DNA of 64,000 nucleotides, taken from a virus. Both the position numbers and the translations under genes were made by a program. Positions within the stretch are counted from its first letter, which is position 1; every line of letters begins with the position of its first letter. Shown in pieces: positions 3,736 to 21,911 of the stretch. Location: the IMG/VR virus record IMGVR_UViG_3300027832_000010, positions 6,298 through 70,297 of that record. One strand, written 5' to 3'. Under the pieces are notes generated by a model. It was not told the DNA's origin. It saw only the letters and a program-made list of their open reading frames with translations, and did no database searches.

Positions 3736-4575
3736 TTAATTCCAATCCACTTTTTCAATTGTAAATGGGTACTGTGCTTCGGCATAAAACTTCTTACGCT
3801 GAGTCAAGTGCCGCTTCGCAAACTTGCACGTTGAAGTCAAGTCCCATATTTGTACGAAGTCTTTGTCTTTTGCTTTTCTTACACCCCGGCCAATGCTCTG
3901 GATAACTCTAACAAAACTTTTGCCAGGTTCAAGAAGAACAAGATTAAAGATCCGCGGTATATTAAGTCCAACAGCCGCAACACCATAGGTTGCAATAATA
4001 ACCTCGTTAGTGCCTTCACGGATAGTGTCATACGTTTCTTTTCTATCTTTAACTTTAACTGCGCCACTTACAAAAGTGCTGCCAGGCATAAGTTTCTGTA
4101 GTTCTTGACCTGCACTAATCCGATCTACCAAAATAAGTGTGTTACCAGTCTGTGATACCTTGTTCATCATCTTACCAATGTATGCTAGTCTTGCAGTATC
4201 AGTTGTTAGATATTTTAATTCTGATTGATAATCAGTGTGTACCACAACATCAATTAACTGACATACATTAACATGGCATTCTGATAGTACGCCTTTGTCT
4301 TGTAATGACTTTGCACTGATACTTCCAATCACCGGACCAAGACTAGCATGAATGCTTTCAAACTCAAACTTCTCTTTAGGTACAGTGCCAGTTAGTCCCC
4401 AACGAATCGGAGCGTTGCGCAAGTTACGTGTAAGCAAGTTTTTAAGAACTTCTGCTTTAGCTTGGTGACAATTTGCAACAACAGCATCATTTGCAACATA
4501 ATTATGATCATTTTTAATGTGTAAATTGTAAACCTCTGGTAGGTTACTAATTACTGTTTTCTTAACTAGTTTCAT
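3736..4575 (-). CDS. uvsW: UvsW-like SF2 helicase, C-terminal half preceded by split-intein C-fragment
   Basis: True start ATG 4575. After the intein: CHQAKAE, GLTGT (motif III), ATYGVAAVGLNIP (V), QSIGRGVR (VI). Confidence 0.92.
   Translation of the reverse strand: MKLVKKTVISNLPEVYNLHIKNDHNYVANDAVVANCHQAKAEVLKNLLTRNLRNAPIRWGLTGTVPKEKFEFESIHASLGPVIGSISAKSLQDKGVLSECHVNVCQLIDVVVHTDYQSELKYLTTDTARLAYIGKMMNKVSQTGNTLILVDRISAGQELQKLMPGSTFVSGAVKVKDRKETYDTIREGTNEVIIATYGVAAVGLNIPRIFNLVLLEPGKSFVRVIQSIGRGVRKAKDKDFVQIWDLTSTCKFAKRHLTQRKKFYAEAQYPFTIEKVDWN
4471..4575 (-). mobile_element. Split intein C-fragment (35 aa) of UvsW
   Basis: MKLVKK...EVYNLHIKNDHNYVANDAVVAN|C: block F (VYNL, HNY.AN) and block G ending in Asn, +1 Cys; penultimate Ala instead of His. 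Confidence 0.92.
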
Positions 4576-5470
4576 ATAATTTCCTAATTTTATTTTTTGT
4601 ATTATCGTCAAAGTTGTCTAAGTTAGTAGGAGGCTTTTTGTTAATAAAATATTCTTTATTTGCTATTATAACAGCATATCCATTAGTTGTACTCCATTCT
4701 TTTGCAGCATTAATCTTTGCTTTAGTTTTTTCGTCATACATTAGTTCTTCTGGCTTTACTTCTATTAATGTCTTTGTATCATGATTTACAAAGTCAACAA
4801 TGTAAATGTGTTCTTTATTATTATAAACGTAAGGAATTCTGATAGTTTCGTATTCTGCATCTTTATCAAAGTATTGGTATAATGCTTCCCAAGAACTTCT
4901 ATATTTTTTATTTTTATAAAATGTATCCCAATGCGTATTTCTATTATTTGAGTTAGGAGTAAAAGTACCGTTTAATATTTTTTCTTTCATGATATTACTA
5001 CGATGAAGTTTGTCTTCGGCTGACATAATTGTTCCATACATGCCATTTTTTGAACCAGTGTTGGCTGCACTAATCTTTTCTTTAGTTTCGGCTAGCATTG
5101 TGTATGCATACGGATAGTCGCCTTTTGTTCCTTTGTTCCATGGTATTCCTGTATTTAAATTGTGTTTTATTATTTCTTTATGCATCAACTGGCAATTAAT
5201 TCCACCTTGCTTTGAGGTAACACTTCTTGCTTGTTTTTCTGCTGCAATACGAGTAGATTTGTGTATACTATAAATATCATCAAAATTTTGTCTCCAACAA
5301 TTGTGTCCAGTTAATACTCTTTTCTTACACAATCGAACATCTTGCTCCGAAGTTAATGATAATCCGTTTGATAATTCAATTTCTTTTCCTGTTATCTTAA
5401 CTGCATATACAGTTTGATTAGCTGTAGACAATAAACTATTAAACTTATTAATATCAAATTTTTTCGCCAT
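4562..5470 (-). CDS. Free-standing endonuclease: NUMOD3-type motifs plus TnsA/gp4-like PD-(D/E)XK domain
   Basis: PWNKG and ETKEKISAANTGSKNGMYG; YRSSWE...IRIPY...YIVDF...LIEVKP, paralleling gp4 at 25156..25590. Own ATAAATA (5495-5501) and GGAG SD. Confidence 0.85.
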   Translation of the reverse strand: MAKKFDINKFNSLLSTANQTVYAVKITGKEIELSNGLSLTSEQDVRLCKKRVLTGHNCWRQNFDDIYSIHKSTRIAAEKQARSVTSKQGGINCQLMHKEIIKHNLNTGIPWNKGTKGDYPYAYTMLAETKEKISAANTGSKNGMYGTIMSAEDKLHRSNIMKEKILNGTFTPNSNNRNTHWDTFYKNKKYRSSWEALYQYFDKDAEYETIRIPYVYNNKEHIYIVDFVNHDTKTLIEVKPEELMYDEKTKAKINAAKEWSTTNGYAVIIANKEYFINKKPPTNLDNFDDNTKNKIRKLYETS

Positions 5471-5483
5471 AAATACCTCTCCG

Positions 5484-6515
5484 TTAGCTATATGTATTTA
5501 TGTCTACAATTTCTAAATCTTCAGTTAATGCATCTGCTCTAACCCATCCATGATTAGTTAAAAATTTATGGTTTGCGGTGACTTGTATTATTACCCCATT
5601 ATTAAACTCTAGTTCTAGCATTTTTTCACTATTGCTGTGAGATAAATTTTTATGAACTCTAACAACTGTATCTTCTTTGTATTGCTGTGTTTTTTCACAA
5701 AGATTTATTACTTTGTCGCCGGGGATTAAGTCCTTGATGGCAATTTTACCTAACGGAGTAGTAACTAATGTGTCGCCTGCAAGGCATTCATCAACAATAA
5801 CAGCGGTTACACCTTCAAGGAACTCTGCAAGACTTAACACTGCGCTGCCGTCCTTGTTCTTCTTGTCAAGAATATTCAAACTCTGCCAAGTGCAAATAGT
5901 GTGAGTCTTACCTAGCATCTTTCTGTCGCCGAAGTACACTCCAACGTCAAGTCCGCAATTAATATAGTCTTCTTCAGTTTGTTCAACAAGTGATTTATTT
6001 GGAACAATGATTAGGCTACGTCCATAGGGCTCTACCATGTGCGACAATGTTGCTGTCGTAATCGTCTTACCTGCACCAGTAGCAATCTGTTGCAAGCTCT
6101 GTGGGTTAGCAAGGAAATTATTAATTGCTTCGACTTGATAGTCACGCAGAATAATTTCTGTACCTGCTACTGGATGTCCTTCTGGCCAACATACGCCTTG
6201 GTCTGCCCAGTAACGTTCGGTTACTGGTACAAAGTTTAATTTAATAGGGTGTCTGTTATCTTGGATGTCTACGATTTCTACATTGTTCTTTTGTAGAATA
6301 TCACAAACAACGTCAAGATGATTAACGTAACCACTGCCGCCGATACCAAAGAACGCAACCTTGCCATCCCATCGTCCAAGTTTGTACTGAGGCATGTGCT
6401 TTGCATATGGCACTTCAAACTTTAATGCGTTTGCAATTTTACGTCGAACGTCTACCTCTAAGCCTTCTAGCTTAATGTTGACTTCGTCTTCAATAATTAA
6501 TCTGCAACTTGCCAT
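5484..6515 (-). CDS. uvsW: UvsW-like helicase, N-terminal half ending in split-intein N-fragment
   Basis: LRDYQ (Q motif), ATGAGKT (Walker A), VIVDE followed by intein CLAGDT. Confidence 0.92.
   Translation of the reverse strand: MASCRLIIEDEVNIKLEGLEVDVRRKIANALKFEVPYAKHMPQYKLGRWDGKVAFFGIGGSGYVNHLDVVCDILQKNNVEIVDIQDNRHPIKLNFVPVTERYWADQGVCWPEGHPVAGTEIILRDYQVEAINNFLANPQSLQQIATGAGKTITTATLSHMVEPYGRSLIIVPNKSLVEQTEEDYINCGLDVGVYFGDRKMLGKTHTICTWQSLNILDKKNKDGSAVLSLAEFLEGVTAVIVDECLAGDTLVTTPLGKIAIKDLIPGDKVINLCEKTQQYKEDTVVRVHKNLSHSNSEKMLELEFNNGVIIQVTANHKFLTNHGWVRADALTEDLEIVDINTYS
5487..5786 (-). mobile_element. Split intein N-fragment (100 aa) of UvsW
   Basis: Block A CLAGDTLVTT; block B IQVTANHKFLT (TxxH). 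Confidence 0.92.
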
Positions 6516-18974: not shown

Positions 18975-20372
18975 TCAATAGTTTGTGCTTATGAAGATTG
19001 GCATTGGTGCATCGTAATCTTCCATATTTTCAGCTTGTGTAAACGTGTTATAGATTCTAGGATCCCAATCTTTTAATACCGCCATCATTCTTATAGCAAG
19101 CAGTGTGGCACTAACAAGATCATCACTTTGTCCTGCTTTTGATTGATAACTTGATCCTGTTGCAACAAAGTTTTTAAGCTCAGATATAAATGGCTTACTG
19201 TGTATAATCATTTTGTCATTTTCAAGCATAGTTTTAAGTCTACTACAAGCAGTAATTTTACTACCATGTGTAGTGTTGAAACCTTTACGGAATTTCCTGA
19301 CGTGCCCTTTTCTAATTGGTTCGCTCACAAATAGACCTGGAATGTTCTCTTCACCAAAGTCGTTTATAACGATTAGTGCTGCTTCGCCGATACCGTTGTT
19401 TTCAACACTCCAGTAAATTCCGTTCTGGTTCCCTGTTTCCTGTGCAAGGTACTTACATATATCTGCAAGCACTCTTATCTGCCCGGGAATAGCAGTGGTG
19501 TTATGTTGCCATTCTGCAACTTGTTCATAACTTGGTAATTCAAATACTTGTATTGCAGCATTGTCGCCACCTGTGCCCATACTCGGATCAAGTGCTACTG
19601 CATACGTATATTGGCTTGTAGGTTTCTTATACCAGCGTGTTTGTCCCATATTAACTAGCGGAGTATCACCTGCCATGGTAGCAAGTTTAATGCTGCTAAC
19701 AAGTGTTTCGTCAAATACTAGGAATTCACAGTCGTATTCACGACGGAATCGTTCTTCGCCGATACGTCCTAGTTCTTCCTGTTTCCATTTTTCATCTCTA
19801 TCTGGATGTTCTGTCCAATAACTACGGAAGCTGTGGAAGCCGTTAATTCCTAATTCTTGTTCATTGCCGTGCTCGTCAAACTTATCTTCTGCCTGTTTCC
19901 AAATAGTAGCAAATGTATCTTCATCTGAGTTTGGTGTGCTTGTAAGAATAGCACGGCCACCAGTTGCTAGTGTAGGAGATATTGATGTCCAAAAGTCTGT
20001 AGCTACGTTAGGCTGCACAAACGCAAATTCGTCGCATTGATGAGAGTTAATATTATTTGCAATTATTACATGATTTTCTGCATTAAATATTTCATAAGTA
20101 TCTTCTAAAACCAAGTATGTTAAGTCTGCGACAGTTTTAACAGTAGTGTGCGAATCTACCTCGTCACCTACACATATATCATTTACTTTTGTTTCTGTGC
20201 CATTAATAAAAAACCGATGTTCTAACGTTGCAGTAACAAACGTACTGTCTGTAAATGTTATTTTACAAGATTCTTTATTTGCATTTTCATTTAAGAAAAT
20301 GCCTTCAAAGTCTTCCCACCCGTTAGGAGTTAATATTTGATATTCTGTATTAGGTGCGTATATTTGTTTCAT
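18975..20372 (-). CDS. Terminase large subunit (gp17), C-terminal half preceded by long split-intein C-fragment
   Basis: After the intein: CDEFAF (Walker B), TSTPN, FRREYDCEF, ALDPSMG, DDLV (nuclease). Confidence 0.95.
   Translation of the reverse strand: MKQIYAPNTEYQILTPNGWEDFEGIFLNENANKESCKITFTDSTFVTATLEHRFFINGTETKVNDICVGDEVDSHTTVKTVADLTYLVLEDTYEIFNAENHVIIANNINSHQCDEFAFVQPNVATDFWTSISPTLATGGRAILTSTPNSDEDTFATIWKQAEDKFDEHGNEQELGINGFHSFRSYWTEHPDRDEKWKQEELGRIGEERFRREYDCEFLVFDETLVSSIKLATMAGDTPLVNMGQTRWYKKPTSQYTYAVALDPSMGTGGDNAAIQVFELPSYEQVAEWQHNTTAIPGQIRVLADICKYLAQETGNQNGIYWSVENNGIGEAALIVINDFGEENIPGLFVSEPIRKGHVRKFRKGFNTTHGSKITACSRLKTMLENDKMIIHSKPFISELKNFVATGSSYQSKAGQSDDLVSATLLAIRMMAVLKDWDPRIYNTFTQAENMEDYDAPMPIFISTNY
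20037..20372 (-). mobile_element. Atypical split intein C-fragment (112 aa) ending in His-Gln
   Basis: QILTPNGW, TATLEHRF (block B lies in the C-fragment), TYEI...IIANNINSHQ|C. Codons TCT CAT CAA TGC checked. Confidence 0.9.
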
Positions 20373-21246
20373 TAAACTCCTTTACCAATCTTGCTCCGCT
20401 TACTGGTGCTGATTCATGCATATCGGTATTAATCATCTTAGCAAACATGTTAAACTCGTACAATGATTTATCAATAGTATAACTAGCGTTAGTTAACAAT
20501 AGCCCTATTGTAATACTACATGCACTGTGTTTTGATACGTTTTCTTTCCACGGAAGCATTTGTAAATTATGTACACTTCCTATAAGCAACGGACTAACAT
20601 GATCTTTGTATCCTTGCATGATAGAAAATATATGGTCTATGTGATACGCTCCGGCGACTCCCGCAAGTCCAGTTTTATAACCTAATGTTATTGCTGACCT
20701 GTGCTGTTCGGTGACATACGTTACTATTGACTTATAACGATAAAACTCATTACGTTGTGACGGTTCTAATATAAGACCATTAGCTGCTTTTGTTGCGTTA
20801 CCTTTAGTAATTGCAAGAGTTGCTAATTGCGAATAACCGTTACGGCCAAACGCGTCGATATTGCTCATATGCGTTGCTCTAGTTTTTTGACCTTTTTTAC
20901 TATATCCGCTAATGCCATCGGCGTCTAGCTTAGATAGTGTTTGTCGGGCAGTAACTTGCGATGTTTCGTAAGCAGTTAATCCAGTAACATCGTCAATTGT
21001 ACTTAGTCCTTTTTTAATGTTTGCTGTTCGTGCATTGCTAACTCCCCGAACCCCCGGGTGTAGCTTGTCGTACTCTGCTACGCTCATGCATAACACCCGC
21101 TCAATGTACGATGTCTTAATCATACTAAGACGTTCGTTGCTCACAGGACATAATATATAATCTATGCCTGATTGTAATGACAATTCGTACAAGTGCGCGT
21201 TACGTCTTCGATTTCGTTTCTTAAATGCTTGTATTTTTATATCCAT
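20350..21246 (-). CDS. Free-standing HNH endonuclease between the TerL halves
   Basis: YHIDHIFS...HNLQMLPWKENVSK. Start moved to ATG 21246, 4 nt after TATAAATA (21251-21258). Confidence 0.85.
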   Translation of the reverse strand: MDIKIQAFKKRNRRRNAHLYELSLQSGIDYILCPVSNERLSMIKTSYIERVLCMSVAEYDKLHPGVRGVSNARTANIKKGLSTIDDVTGLTAYETSQVTARQTLSKLDADGISGYSKKGQKTRATHMSNIDAFGRNGYSQLATLAITKGNATKAANGLILEPSQRNEFYRYKSIVTYVTEQHRSAITLGYKTGLAGVAGAYHIDHIFSIMQGYKDHVSPLLIGSVHNLQMLPWKENVSKHSACSITIGLLLTNASYTIDKSLYEFNMFAKMINTDMHESAPVSGARLVKEFNETNIRT

Positions 21247-21272
21247 ACTGTATTTATACAAATGCAAACTTA

Positions 21273-21911
21273 TCACACGATAATTATGTTAGGGTTGTGT
21301 AGCCTAATGTACAAATCTCGAAGAGTTATATCTTCTTCAACAAGGGTATGCTTATTACGAACTTTAACAGTAGTTGTATCACCATCTAAACAATAGAGTA
21401 ACGAGATACTCATACCACGTCCTGTGTTGCCTGTTGTAGTAGCACTAACAATACGACTTCCATTTTCAAATTCGATTGAGCCTTTGTTGTAGTTAGTAAC
21501 ACCTGCTCTAATGTGATCTGGGCATAACTCATAAATGTAACGGATGCGCTGCATAATCTCTTGCGCACCTGTGTACTTGTGTGCAGCAATAAGGATTGTT
21601 TGATCGGGTACAAACATTGCATACCATGCTAAGTAGATTGCCGCACATGTAGTCTTGCCTGTTTGACGAGGTAACATGTTGATATTAAAGCGAAAATTAT
21701 GATAACTTTGTAACAAGCGTTCTTGATACTCATACGGATCAAATAGCAACTTGCCTTTTACTGGATGTTGTATGTATGCAAACTTACGAGCAAAATACAA
21801 ATAGCCGTCTACAGGATCCATACACTTAAAAAGGTCAGCAATCTGCGCTTCAGTAAACGTTTCCTGCCTGTTTGCTTTTTTAATTAATACGCCGTCTAAT
21901 GATTTTGCCAT
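21273..21911 (-). CDS. Terminase large subunit, N-terminal half ending in short split-intein N-fragment
   Basis: YEYQ, LPRQTGKTT (Walker A), IEFENGSRI, GRGMSISLLY then CLDGDT. Confidence 0.95.
   Translation of the reverse strand: MAKSLDGVLIKKANRQETFTEAQIADLFKCMDPVDGYLYFARKFAYIQHPVKGKLLFDPYEYQERLLQSYHNFRFNINMLPRQTGKTTCAAIYLAWYAMFVPDQTILIAAHKYTGAQEIMQRIRYIYELCPDHIRAGVTNYNKGSIEFENGSRIVSATTTGNTGRGMSISLLYCLDGDTTTVKVRNKHTLVEEDITLRDLYIRLHNPNIIIV
21276..21392 (-). mobile_element. Atypical split intein N-fragment (39 aa)
   Basis: CLDGDTTTVKVR...ITLRDLYIRL*; block A only. Confidence 0.9.

Follow-up and report, generated by a model that had tools for sequence, protein, structure and literature searches.

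A predicted split intein with a terminal glutamine in the Walker B motif of a large-phage terminase

Naturally split inteins are known from fractured genes of phage and metagenomic context, in which two open reading frames (ORFs), each joining part of a host protein to part of an intein, enclose a free-standing endonuclease gene (Dassa et al. 2009; PMC2677866). Under the gene-breaking model, such a locus arises when a free-standing endonuclease invades an unsplit mini-intein (PMC2677866). Among the split inteins, AceL-TerL, GOS-TerL, and Cat (PMC2677866; Protein Data Bank [PDB] 6DSL; reviewed in PMC11766414 and PMC13014065) reside in the terminase large subunit (TerL), with Cys opening the C-extein (Cys+1), an N-terminal part (IntN) of 25 to 37 amino acids (aa), and a C-terminal part (IntC) of 104 to 122 aa that contains block B. 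Inteins that end in Gln are also on record, in PolII of Pyrococcus abyssi, P. horikoshii, and Methanoculleus marisnigri and in the ribonucleotide reductase (RNR) of Chilo iridescent virus (CIV); these are class 1 inteins with Cys1 (PMC4031507, PMC8175363, PMC8229266). Each of the elements at issue, namely fractured genes, TerL inteins with an atypical split, inteins ending in Gln, and an HNH gene lying within a split intein (MIJ3 PolB; PMC6892783), has been published. Here we analyze a 64,000-nucleotide (nt) stretch of viral DNA, positions 6,298 to 70,297 of IMG/VR record IMGVR_UViG_3300027832_000010 (the window), in which positions 18975 to 21911 hold a terL gene fractured by an atypically split intein that ends in Gln.

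This intein is very probably a functional, mobile, naturally split class 1 element in the TerL of an uncultured aquatic phage. On the minus strand, the locus runs head to tail through the TerL N-half, an endonuclease-like gene, and IntC joined to the TerL C-half, the same layout as in the fractured genes of Dassa et al. and in MIJ3 PolB. Its features are as follows (a slash marks a splice junction here and below).

21911..21273, minus strand: TerL N-half ORF, 212 aa, comprising a 173-aa N-extein and a 39-aa IntN
21393..21911, minus strand: TerL N-extein, 173 aa, from Walker A (PRQTGKTT) to ...GRGMSISLLY, which forms the Walker B strand's first half (Terminase_6N profile; phrog_5989, 3e-50)
21273..21392 including the stop, minus strand: IntN, 39 aa, with block A CLDGDT, helix ..LRDLYIRL, and tail NPNIIIV (from the ORF and relatives)
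21392..21390 and 21275..21273, minus strand: Cys1 codon and stop codon TGA of IntN
20350..21246, minus strand: middle gene for an HNH-like endonuclease, 298 aa from ATG, in the place taken by a short linker in unsplit relatives (phrog_5104, motif, and model)
20377..20382, minus strand: Shine-Dalgarno sequence AAGGAG, 4 nt 5' of the C-half ATG (20372), read from the sequence
20372..18975, minus strand: TerL C-half ORF, 465 aa, beginning with a 112-aa IntC that is followed by the C-extein
20037..20372, minus strand: IntC, 112 aa, with ILTPNGW, block B T49-L-E-H52, block F D91/H101, and block G H111-Q112
20039..20037 and 20036..20034, minus strand: Gln codon CAA and Cys+1 codon TGC, where the IntC end N-S-H-Q meets C-DEFAF
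18975..20036, minus strand: TerL C-extein, 353 aa plus stop, beginning with Cys+1 and the Walker B Asp-Glu (CDEFAF) (Terminase_6C, 7.5e-16; phrog_36964, 7e-80)

The intein cuts TerL inside Walker B (LLY/CDEFAF); the RNaseH-like nuclease domain and the other part of the ATPase lie in the C-extein. Pfam Terminase_6N matches the N-half over profile positions 3 to 102 and the C-half over positions 95 to 201, Terminase_6C matches the C-half, and the PHROG terminase families agree with Pfam on both. When joined, the exteins (526 aa) share 281 identical residues with the intact 531-aa TerL of PA5oct, with no gap at the junction (SISLLY-CDEFAF versus SISLVY-LDEMAF). The 3' end of the endonuclease gene overlaps the start of the C-half by 23 nt, and no terminator-like site was found on the coding strand between the three genes. 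A sequence-only reading of this DNA had described a TerL fractured in Walker B, a 39/112 division with block B in IntC, and a terminal His-Gln before Cys+1; all its coordinates and residues hold to the base. The closest named TerLs belong to the large phages PA5oct (a Pseudomonas phage), Atu_ph07, SCTP-2, and GAP32, and relatives of the family lie on contigs of 320 to 345 kb. A megablast search with the whole locus against GenBank phages gave no match; the relatives were reached by protein-level searches.

In class 1 inteins, a His in block F and a penultimate His precede a terminal Asn, rarely Gln or Asp, which is followed by Cys, Ser, or Thr. The window intein has Cys1 in block A, Thr-x-x-His in block B, and blocks F and G with the rare terminal Gln, and its removal restores TerL; a free-standing 298-aa HNH-like ORF lies between the two host-intein ORFs. 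Unsplit relatives of 150 to 179 aa occur naturally (P0112, P0084, and P0060), and one of them, P0112 residues 206 to 366, was modeled with AF2 from an alignment that set unsplit forms beside IntN tails and IntC parts. The model (pLDDT, 88.4; pTM, 0.84) has the HINT fold. Its sole low-confidence stretch, residues 40 to 44, coincides with the split point of the window intein and follows a helix at residues 28 to 35 (..LQELYVRL). The top 50 PDB matches in Foldseek were all inteins and related Hint domains (TM up to 0.81), among them PhoPolII 7OEC (E, 1.6e-8; TM, 0.76; 20% identity), RadA (TM, 0.81), VidaL 6VGV, and Cat 6DSL_B (E, 1e-6; 25% identity). A PDB search with IntN alone gave no match. 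A special kinship with the Gln-ended PolII inteins, which were top matches, was considered and rejected, as many inteins score within 100-fold.

Since the split falls after helix alpha-1, the position termed S2 and assigned to AceL and GOS TerL (PMC13014065), the split geometry of the window intein is the same as theirs. The motif ..ILTPxG[FW]..F.GI is also common to the window, AceL, GOS, and Cat inteins. The sites differ: the Cat-type site precedes ...CEF(L/I), whereas the window intein lies in Walker B, and the CEFL-type site of the window TerL is empty (RREYD-CEFLVFDE). In phmmer, the window IntC aligned end to end with CatC (6DSL_B, which continues ...SHA/CE), at an E value of only 0.45; a second intein in P0010, at ...REFAC/...SSN/CEFLVYDE, matched CatC with an E value of 1.5e-10. 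Site and E value together rule out that the window intein is an allele or close relative of the AceL-, GOS-, or Cat-TerL inteins. The window intein shares the atypical split with these inteins, which the sequence-only reading had named for comparison, and differs from them in its TerL site, in its distant (superfamily-level) kinship, and in its lack of a terminal Asn. The terminal Asn of AceL- and GOS-TerL itself rests on the Cat construct, whose SHA/C end is presumably an N-to-A mutant, and on the Asn found in 32 of 32 relatives at sites other than Walker B.

The Walker B and Cat-type families are paralogous elements at different TerL sites; they can share one host protein. In P0060 and P0084, Walker B holds an unsplit intein that ends in His-Gln, and the CEFL-type site has an IntN of 33 aa. 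P0112 has three inteins, located in Walker A (SHN/T), in Walker B (unsplit, HQ/C), and at the Cat-type site (REYG/C.., with a short IntN). Because both types co-occur in single TerL proteins, window-type inteins are probably orthogonal to Cat-type inteins, and up to three inteins per TerL implies several mutually orthogonal ones, some of them atypically split, in one protein.

Like the Gln-ended PolII and RNR inteins, the window intein has His-Gln as its last two residues, followed by Cys+1, and a block F His in position to activate the Gln. Those inteins are unsplit and reside in archaeal polymerases or an insect-virus reductase, whereas the window intein is atypically split, resides in a phage TerL, and belongs to a large close family in which Gln is the rule. 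The Pab and Pho PolII and CIV RNR inteins splice with their terminal Gln, aided by the block F His and the penultimate His; for the PolII inteins, cyclization of Gln and the part played by both His residues are documented, and in the CIV RNR intein Gln supports splicing better than Asn does (PMC4031507, PMC8175363, PMC8229266). The sequence-only reading had suggested that an atypical split and a terminal Gln might be an undescribed combination. In the literature searched (many subscription papers and InBase lay outside the search), we found no TerL intein of this kind and no description of a Walker B TerL intein family that is both atypically split and Gln terminated; no atypical TerL intein ending in His-Gln has been characterized there.

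Conservation was first assessed with a word-seeded search, which returned 163 TerL C-halves with an IntC. The junction could be parsed in 115, and it read HQ/C in 113, SQ/C in one (Salicola phage SCTP-2), and HN/C in one. Across 121 aligned IntCs with a median identity to the window of 63%, T49, H52, H101, H111, and Cys+1 are present in all 121, and the terminal residue is Gln in 120 and Asn in 1. On the N-terminal side, a search for N-halves gave 304 proteins; all 115 parsed inteins begin with Cys-Leu-[Asp/Glu]-Gly, and most IntNs are 38 to 40 aa long. Nei-Gojobori dN/dS ratios against five relatives were 0.04 to 0.29 for IntC, 0.23 to 0.38 for IntN, and 0.14 to 0.16 for the endonuclease, and these low values show that all three are under purifying selection. 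One family member has been in GenBank since 2017, as gene 224 of SCTP-2, annotated just as "terminase large subunit."

If the intein halves no longer spliced, they could serve as a non-covalent dimerization module that holds the TerL fragments together. Functional genes in pieces do exist without splicing, as in the HNH-split NrdA of phage Aeh1, which has no intein (PMC2677866), and in PolII inteins Asn is a better leaving group than a terminal Gln. However, non-splicing would leave a 151-aa HINT domain permanently in the ATPase active site, at the break LLY/CDE. Pure docking would also not keep the residues that serve catalysis only (Cys1, T49/H52, H101, H111, Gln, and Cys+1), which are invariant or nearly so at about 63% median identity, and the unsplit alleles (L007, P0084, and P0112) must splice to give any TerL. 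We therefore regard this alternative as very unlikely and continue with a splicing intein.

The locus also shows signs of recent mobility. In 65 of the 80 closest viral loci, terL is intact and reads SISLLYCDEFAFV; 8 have a split intein ending in His-Gln, 2 have an unsplit one ending in His-Gln, and 1 has a sibling intein ending in Lys-Asn. All 65 intein-less loci have the Cys (LLYCDEFAF), so Cys+1 is native to this TerL clade. The empty allele L015 is 99.5 to 99.8% identical to the window over flanks of 821 and 1,362 nt (2,183 nt) and lacks exactly 1,356 nt, a stretch that begins with the Cys1 codon and ends with the Gln codon. Only seven differences separate the two, all of them silent and all within 15 nt upstream or 24 nt downstream of the junction.

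21396..21405, minus strand: upstream co-conversion tract with four silent differences from L015 (21405, 21402, 21401, and 21396)
20013..20028, minus strand: downstream co-conversion tract with three silent differences from L015 (20028, 20016, and 20013)

At all seven positions, the window agrees with the divergent intein-bearing loci L007 and L008. The exteins of these loci are 78 to 81% identical to those of the window, whereas the IntC DNA is identical at 336 of 336 positions. Because the silent bases and IntC match L007 and L008 while the exteins diverge, we interpret the pattern as homing with short co-conversion tracts. L007 and L008 likely represent the donor type of the window cassette, and the seven silent bases likely mark the bounds of the homing site. 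The locus L011 differs in the same manner, with the cassette 88 to 92% identical (dS, 0.2 to 0.4) and the exteins 67 to 74% identical (dS saturated).

The intein of L007 and L008 is unsplit, and 21 codons replace the end of IntN, the endonuclease gene, and the beginning of IntC. Both other forms also stand in DNA contigs of two runs, one from a salt lake and one from fresh water: an empty-site joint (20034 to 21391, which skips 1,356 nt) and an endonuclease-less joint (20373 to 21296, with 61 other letters between). A pattern scan of viral and metagenome contigs for the 61-nt endonuclease-less joint found none; the allele was reached by protein search as L007 and L008. Dassa et al. proposed gene breaking as a model; here the empty (L015), unsplit (L007, L008, P0084, and P0112), and split (window) forms are all natural alleles of one site, and judging by these alignments the three stages of the model are present at that site. 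The model thereby becomes directly testable on natural alleles.

Intein-less relatives in the same samples, and the 65 of 80 closest loci without an intein, could alternatively mean that the intein-bearing terL is defective or decaying, disabled by its Gln, and either transient or complemented by co-infecting intein-less relatives. Against this, no frameshift or stop occurs in any part of the fractured terL, and dN/dS for both halves stays well under 1. Gln is kept by 120 of 121 close relatives and also occurs in three or more groups across the wider superfamily. Moreover, the cultured phage SCTP-2 has only a fractured terL with a terminal Gln (SQ/CDEFAF). Decay is highly unlikely in our view, and we retain a functional intein.

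The assembly is well supported. The CAA codon at 20037 to 20039, which the sequence-only reading had marked for confirmation, is unchanged in contigs of four public runs (0 differences), one of them an independent salt-lake assembly. A contig of one possible source run covers the whole stretch with 0 differences; in the independent salt-lake run (X4), a contig matches 19060 to 20141 with 0 differences, and 20170 to 21911 is reproduced with 12 differences. The same three-gene layout recurs in other contigs (an NCBI contig of 322 kb and 8 further viral contigs; L005, L006, L009 to L014, and L030). An assembly or sequencing artifact, in the CAA codon or as a chimeric joining of the three genes, might be suspected in a metagenome-type contig (78.9 kb) from samples where several allelic forms coexist, but these matches reduce its probability to almost nothing.

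Between the TerL halves, where the sequence-only reading had placed an HNH gene, lies an endonuclease-like gene with HNH-pattern residues. Among 32 aligned endonucleases, D204, H205, N227, N236, and K239 are invariant (..IDH..N..N..K), in the HNH (H-N-N) order, and the model (pLDDT, 91.8) places strands 201 to 205 and 228 to 232, followed by helix 233 to 239, at the motif. We call the protein HNH-like rather than HNH because matches beyond the motif are weak, and the model and motif hint at such a nuclease. None of its 151 relatives has a Pfam domain, its only functional PHROG match is endonuclease VII (E, 0.008), and language-model leads to HNH all scored below 0.9. Foldseek returned nothing significant; Cas9 HNH domains, colicin E9, and McrA were frequent among its weak top rows. 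The HNH-like protein is not of the GIY-YIG or Vsr-like type.

About one-quarter of the N-halves in the family (P0133, P0136, P0141, P0146, and others) end in a longer tail, ..NP.K[VI]L[STDN]DEF[AG]FV, and thereby repeat the start of the C-extein (CDEFAFV). In L088 (1249 to 1320), CDEFAFV-like tail letters occur in another frame, directly 5' of the endonuclease start. The repeated tail may be a footprint of endonuclease insertion. In L082 (1217 to 2140) and L088 (1249 to 2250), a sibling endonuclease shares its N-terminal ~140 residues with the window protein, and its C-terminal half is unrelated (..AIEYQSSAWHADP..), with no Pfam match. This suggests a swap of nuclease domains on a common DNA-binding module.

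Several points count against a functional, mobile intein. We infer splicing of the window intein, the Gln-cyclization chemistry, and cutting of the empty site by the endonuclease from sequence and models. Native terminal Gln slows splicing in archaeal PolII inteins (PMC4031507). The Pfam Intein_splicing model stayed below its cutoff even for the fused relative P0112 (E, 0.0065), for which reason the relatives are labeled hypothetical. Searches of Pfam and the PDB with the endonuclease, as a single sequence and as a profile, gave no match to a curated HNH family, and the best fold match in VIA, the GVE2 phage HNH endonuclease 5h0o_A, is weak (Z, 4.1; 70 residues; model residues 161 to 240). The presumed target of the endonuclease, the empty terL site, is deduced from the co-conversion pattern. 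Finally, an intein-less relative coexists in the same samples and could complement the gene in co-infection.

Assuming that the intein does splice, the TerL halves would be translated separately, the C-half from its own AAGGAG ribosome-binding site. The 39-aa IntN, consisting of block A and helix alpha-1, would dock on the 112-aa IntC and complete the HINT fold. As is standard for class 1 trans-splicing, Cys1 would then form a thioester by an N-S shift, and the N-extein would be transferred from Cys1 to Cys+1. In the third step, Gln112 would cyclize to an aminoglutarimide, aided by His111 and the block F His101, after which an S-N shift would yield ...SISLLY-CDEFAF... with an intact Walker B in a TerL of 526 aa (junction peptide ...SISLLYCDEFAFVQPN...). 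Because the ATPase motif is incomplete before splicing, DNA packaging would depend on it; these phages would package DNA only after a post-translational ligation within the active site of the ATPase, which should be inactive up to that point. The split state itself was probably caused by insertion of the HNH-like gene in the loop after alpha-1; as a homing endonuclease, its product would spread the cassette to terL alleles that lack it, through double-strand-break repair.

The first tally of His-Gln ends (113 of 115) might be taken as near universality in the superfamily, a reading that we rejected as biased by the word-seeded search. Because that tally came from word seeding, we ran an exhaustive phmmer search without a word index over 1.84 billion cluster representatives, which gave 397 clusters at an E value of ≤0.001. 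The intein end was alignable in 144 of the best 150 of these clusters, which divide by insertion site as follows.

Site just before the Walker B Asp-Glu (/CDE): n = 82; Gln, 23; Asn, 59; other, 0
Site where the Walker B strand begins (/C-h-h-h-D-E): n = 23; Gln, 11; Asn, 12; other, 0
All other sites, including the Cat-type CEFL site: n = 39; Gln, 0; Asn, 38; other, 1 (Thr)

Gln thus accounts for 34 of 105 representatives at Walker B and 0 of 39 elsewhere, so the window, with its Gln, differs from the inteins at sites outside Walker B, where 38 of 39 end in Asn and 1 in Thr. The idea that a Gln ending is rare, as the earlier reading had it, does not hold for Walker B TerL inteins, given this share and the more than 110 close clusters and cultured SCTP-2 that carry it. 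At the /CDE site, IntC stands at the very start of the protein, i.e., is atypically split, in 65 of 82 representatives. The restriction of Gln to Walker B sites is suggestive of a site preference, confounded by shared ancestry.

In a tree of 143 IntCs, which is weakly resolved owing to few columns, Gln forms fall in at least three groups with 12 Gln/Asn changes on the best tree, and the window belongs to a nine-member Gln group. The Gln forms may nevertheless have a single origin. Retention of Gln could be a frozen state, because the change from CAA or CAG to AAY takes two base changes via Lys or His codons. The sibling intein at the same site in L082 and L088, with an IntC 34% identical to that of the window, ends in TKN/C. 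A second Gln-ended group (HQ/C-h-h-h-D-E) is inserted four residues ahead of the window site, where the Walker B strand begins, in terminases of the T4-like gp17 type (P0441, P0452, P0456, P0467, P0480, P0485, P0496, P0500, P0507, and P0508).

The finding is of value chiefly for the large size of the family and for its natural allelic series. One could go further and see in the Gln-ended, atypically split Walker B TerL inteins a natural class that is abundant, with hundreds of lineages among large aquatic phages, and so far undescribed, in which Gln is kept because it is advantageous and not just as a frozen accident, the alleles record the birth of a split intein, and the members form a ready orthogonal tool set; taken as a whole, we consider this possible but rather doubtful. 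An advantage of Gln might, for example, lie in a delay of the cyclization step, such that the half-assembled trans complex avoids premature C-cleavage, or in the timing or gating of terminase activation. Natural split inteins with a short IntN are wanted for protein semisynthesis, and the characterized split inteins include AceL-TerL, GOS-TerL, Cat, VidaL, and PolB16 (PMC13014065, PMC10189870). The window intein would add a separate, large, and apparently unexploited family at another TerL site, whose His-Gln chemistry may shift the balance of splicing versus C-cleavage. As a family with Gln as the rule, it would also offer studies of mechanism a mesophilic match for the thermophilic PolII inteins, of which there are few.

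In the cultured phage SCTP-2 (MF360958; 440 kb), terL is in three pieces at about 429, 257, and 216 kb (L001, 3001 to 5085; L003, 1162 to 2055; L004, 1372 to 1764). Piece 1 ends in ..ARQLGK/CVDYETN.., with an IntN of ~44 aa at Walker A. Piece 2 begins with an IntC ending in SHN/T and itself ends in LLY/CLDGETT.. with an unusually long tail of ~90 aa. Piece 3 begins with an IntC ending in SQ/CDEFAF and also contains an unsplit intein (PTIS/CLAPG...GSN/T). One SCTP-2 terminase would therefore need two trans-splicing events and one cis-splicing event.

A further feature of the terL locus itself is a putative promoter-like motif.

21251..21258, minus strand: exact TATAAATA (T4 late-promoter consensus), 4 nt 5' of the endonuclease ATG, putative

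The motif occurs twice in the window against 10.6 copies expected by chance, the other copy being at 5269 to 5276 on the plus strand; the groES-groEL genes at about 38.2 kb have no exact copy nearby. We set it aside as a late promoter of the endonuclease gene, because only 4 nt separate it from the ATG and the window has almost no other copy.

The window contains a second fractured gene at 3736 to 6515 on the minus strand. Its helicase N-part (..AVIVDE/CLAGDTLV..) carries an IntN of ~100 aa and is followed by a 302-aa endonuclease-like gene and then by a short IntC (..AVVAN/CHQAKAE) joined to the helicase C-part. The helicase intein has a canonical split and a terminal Asn.

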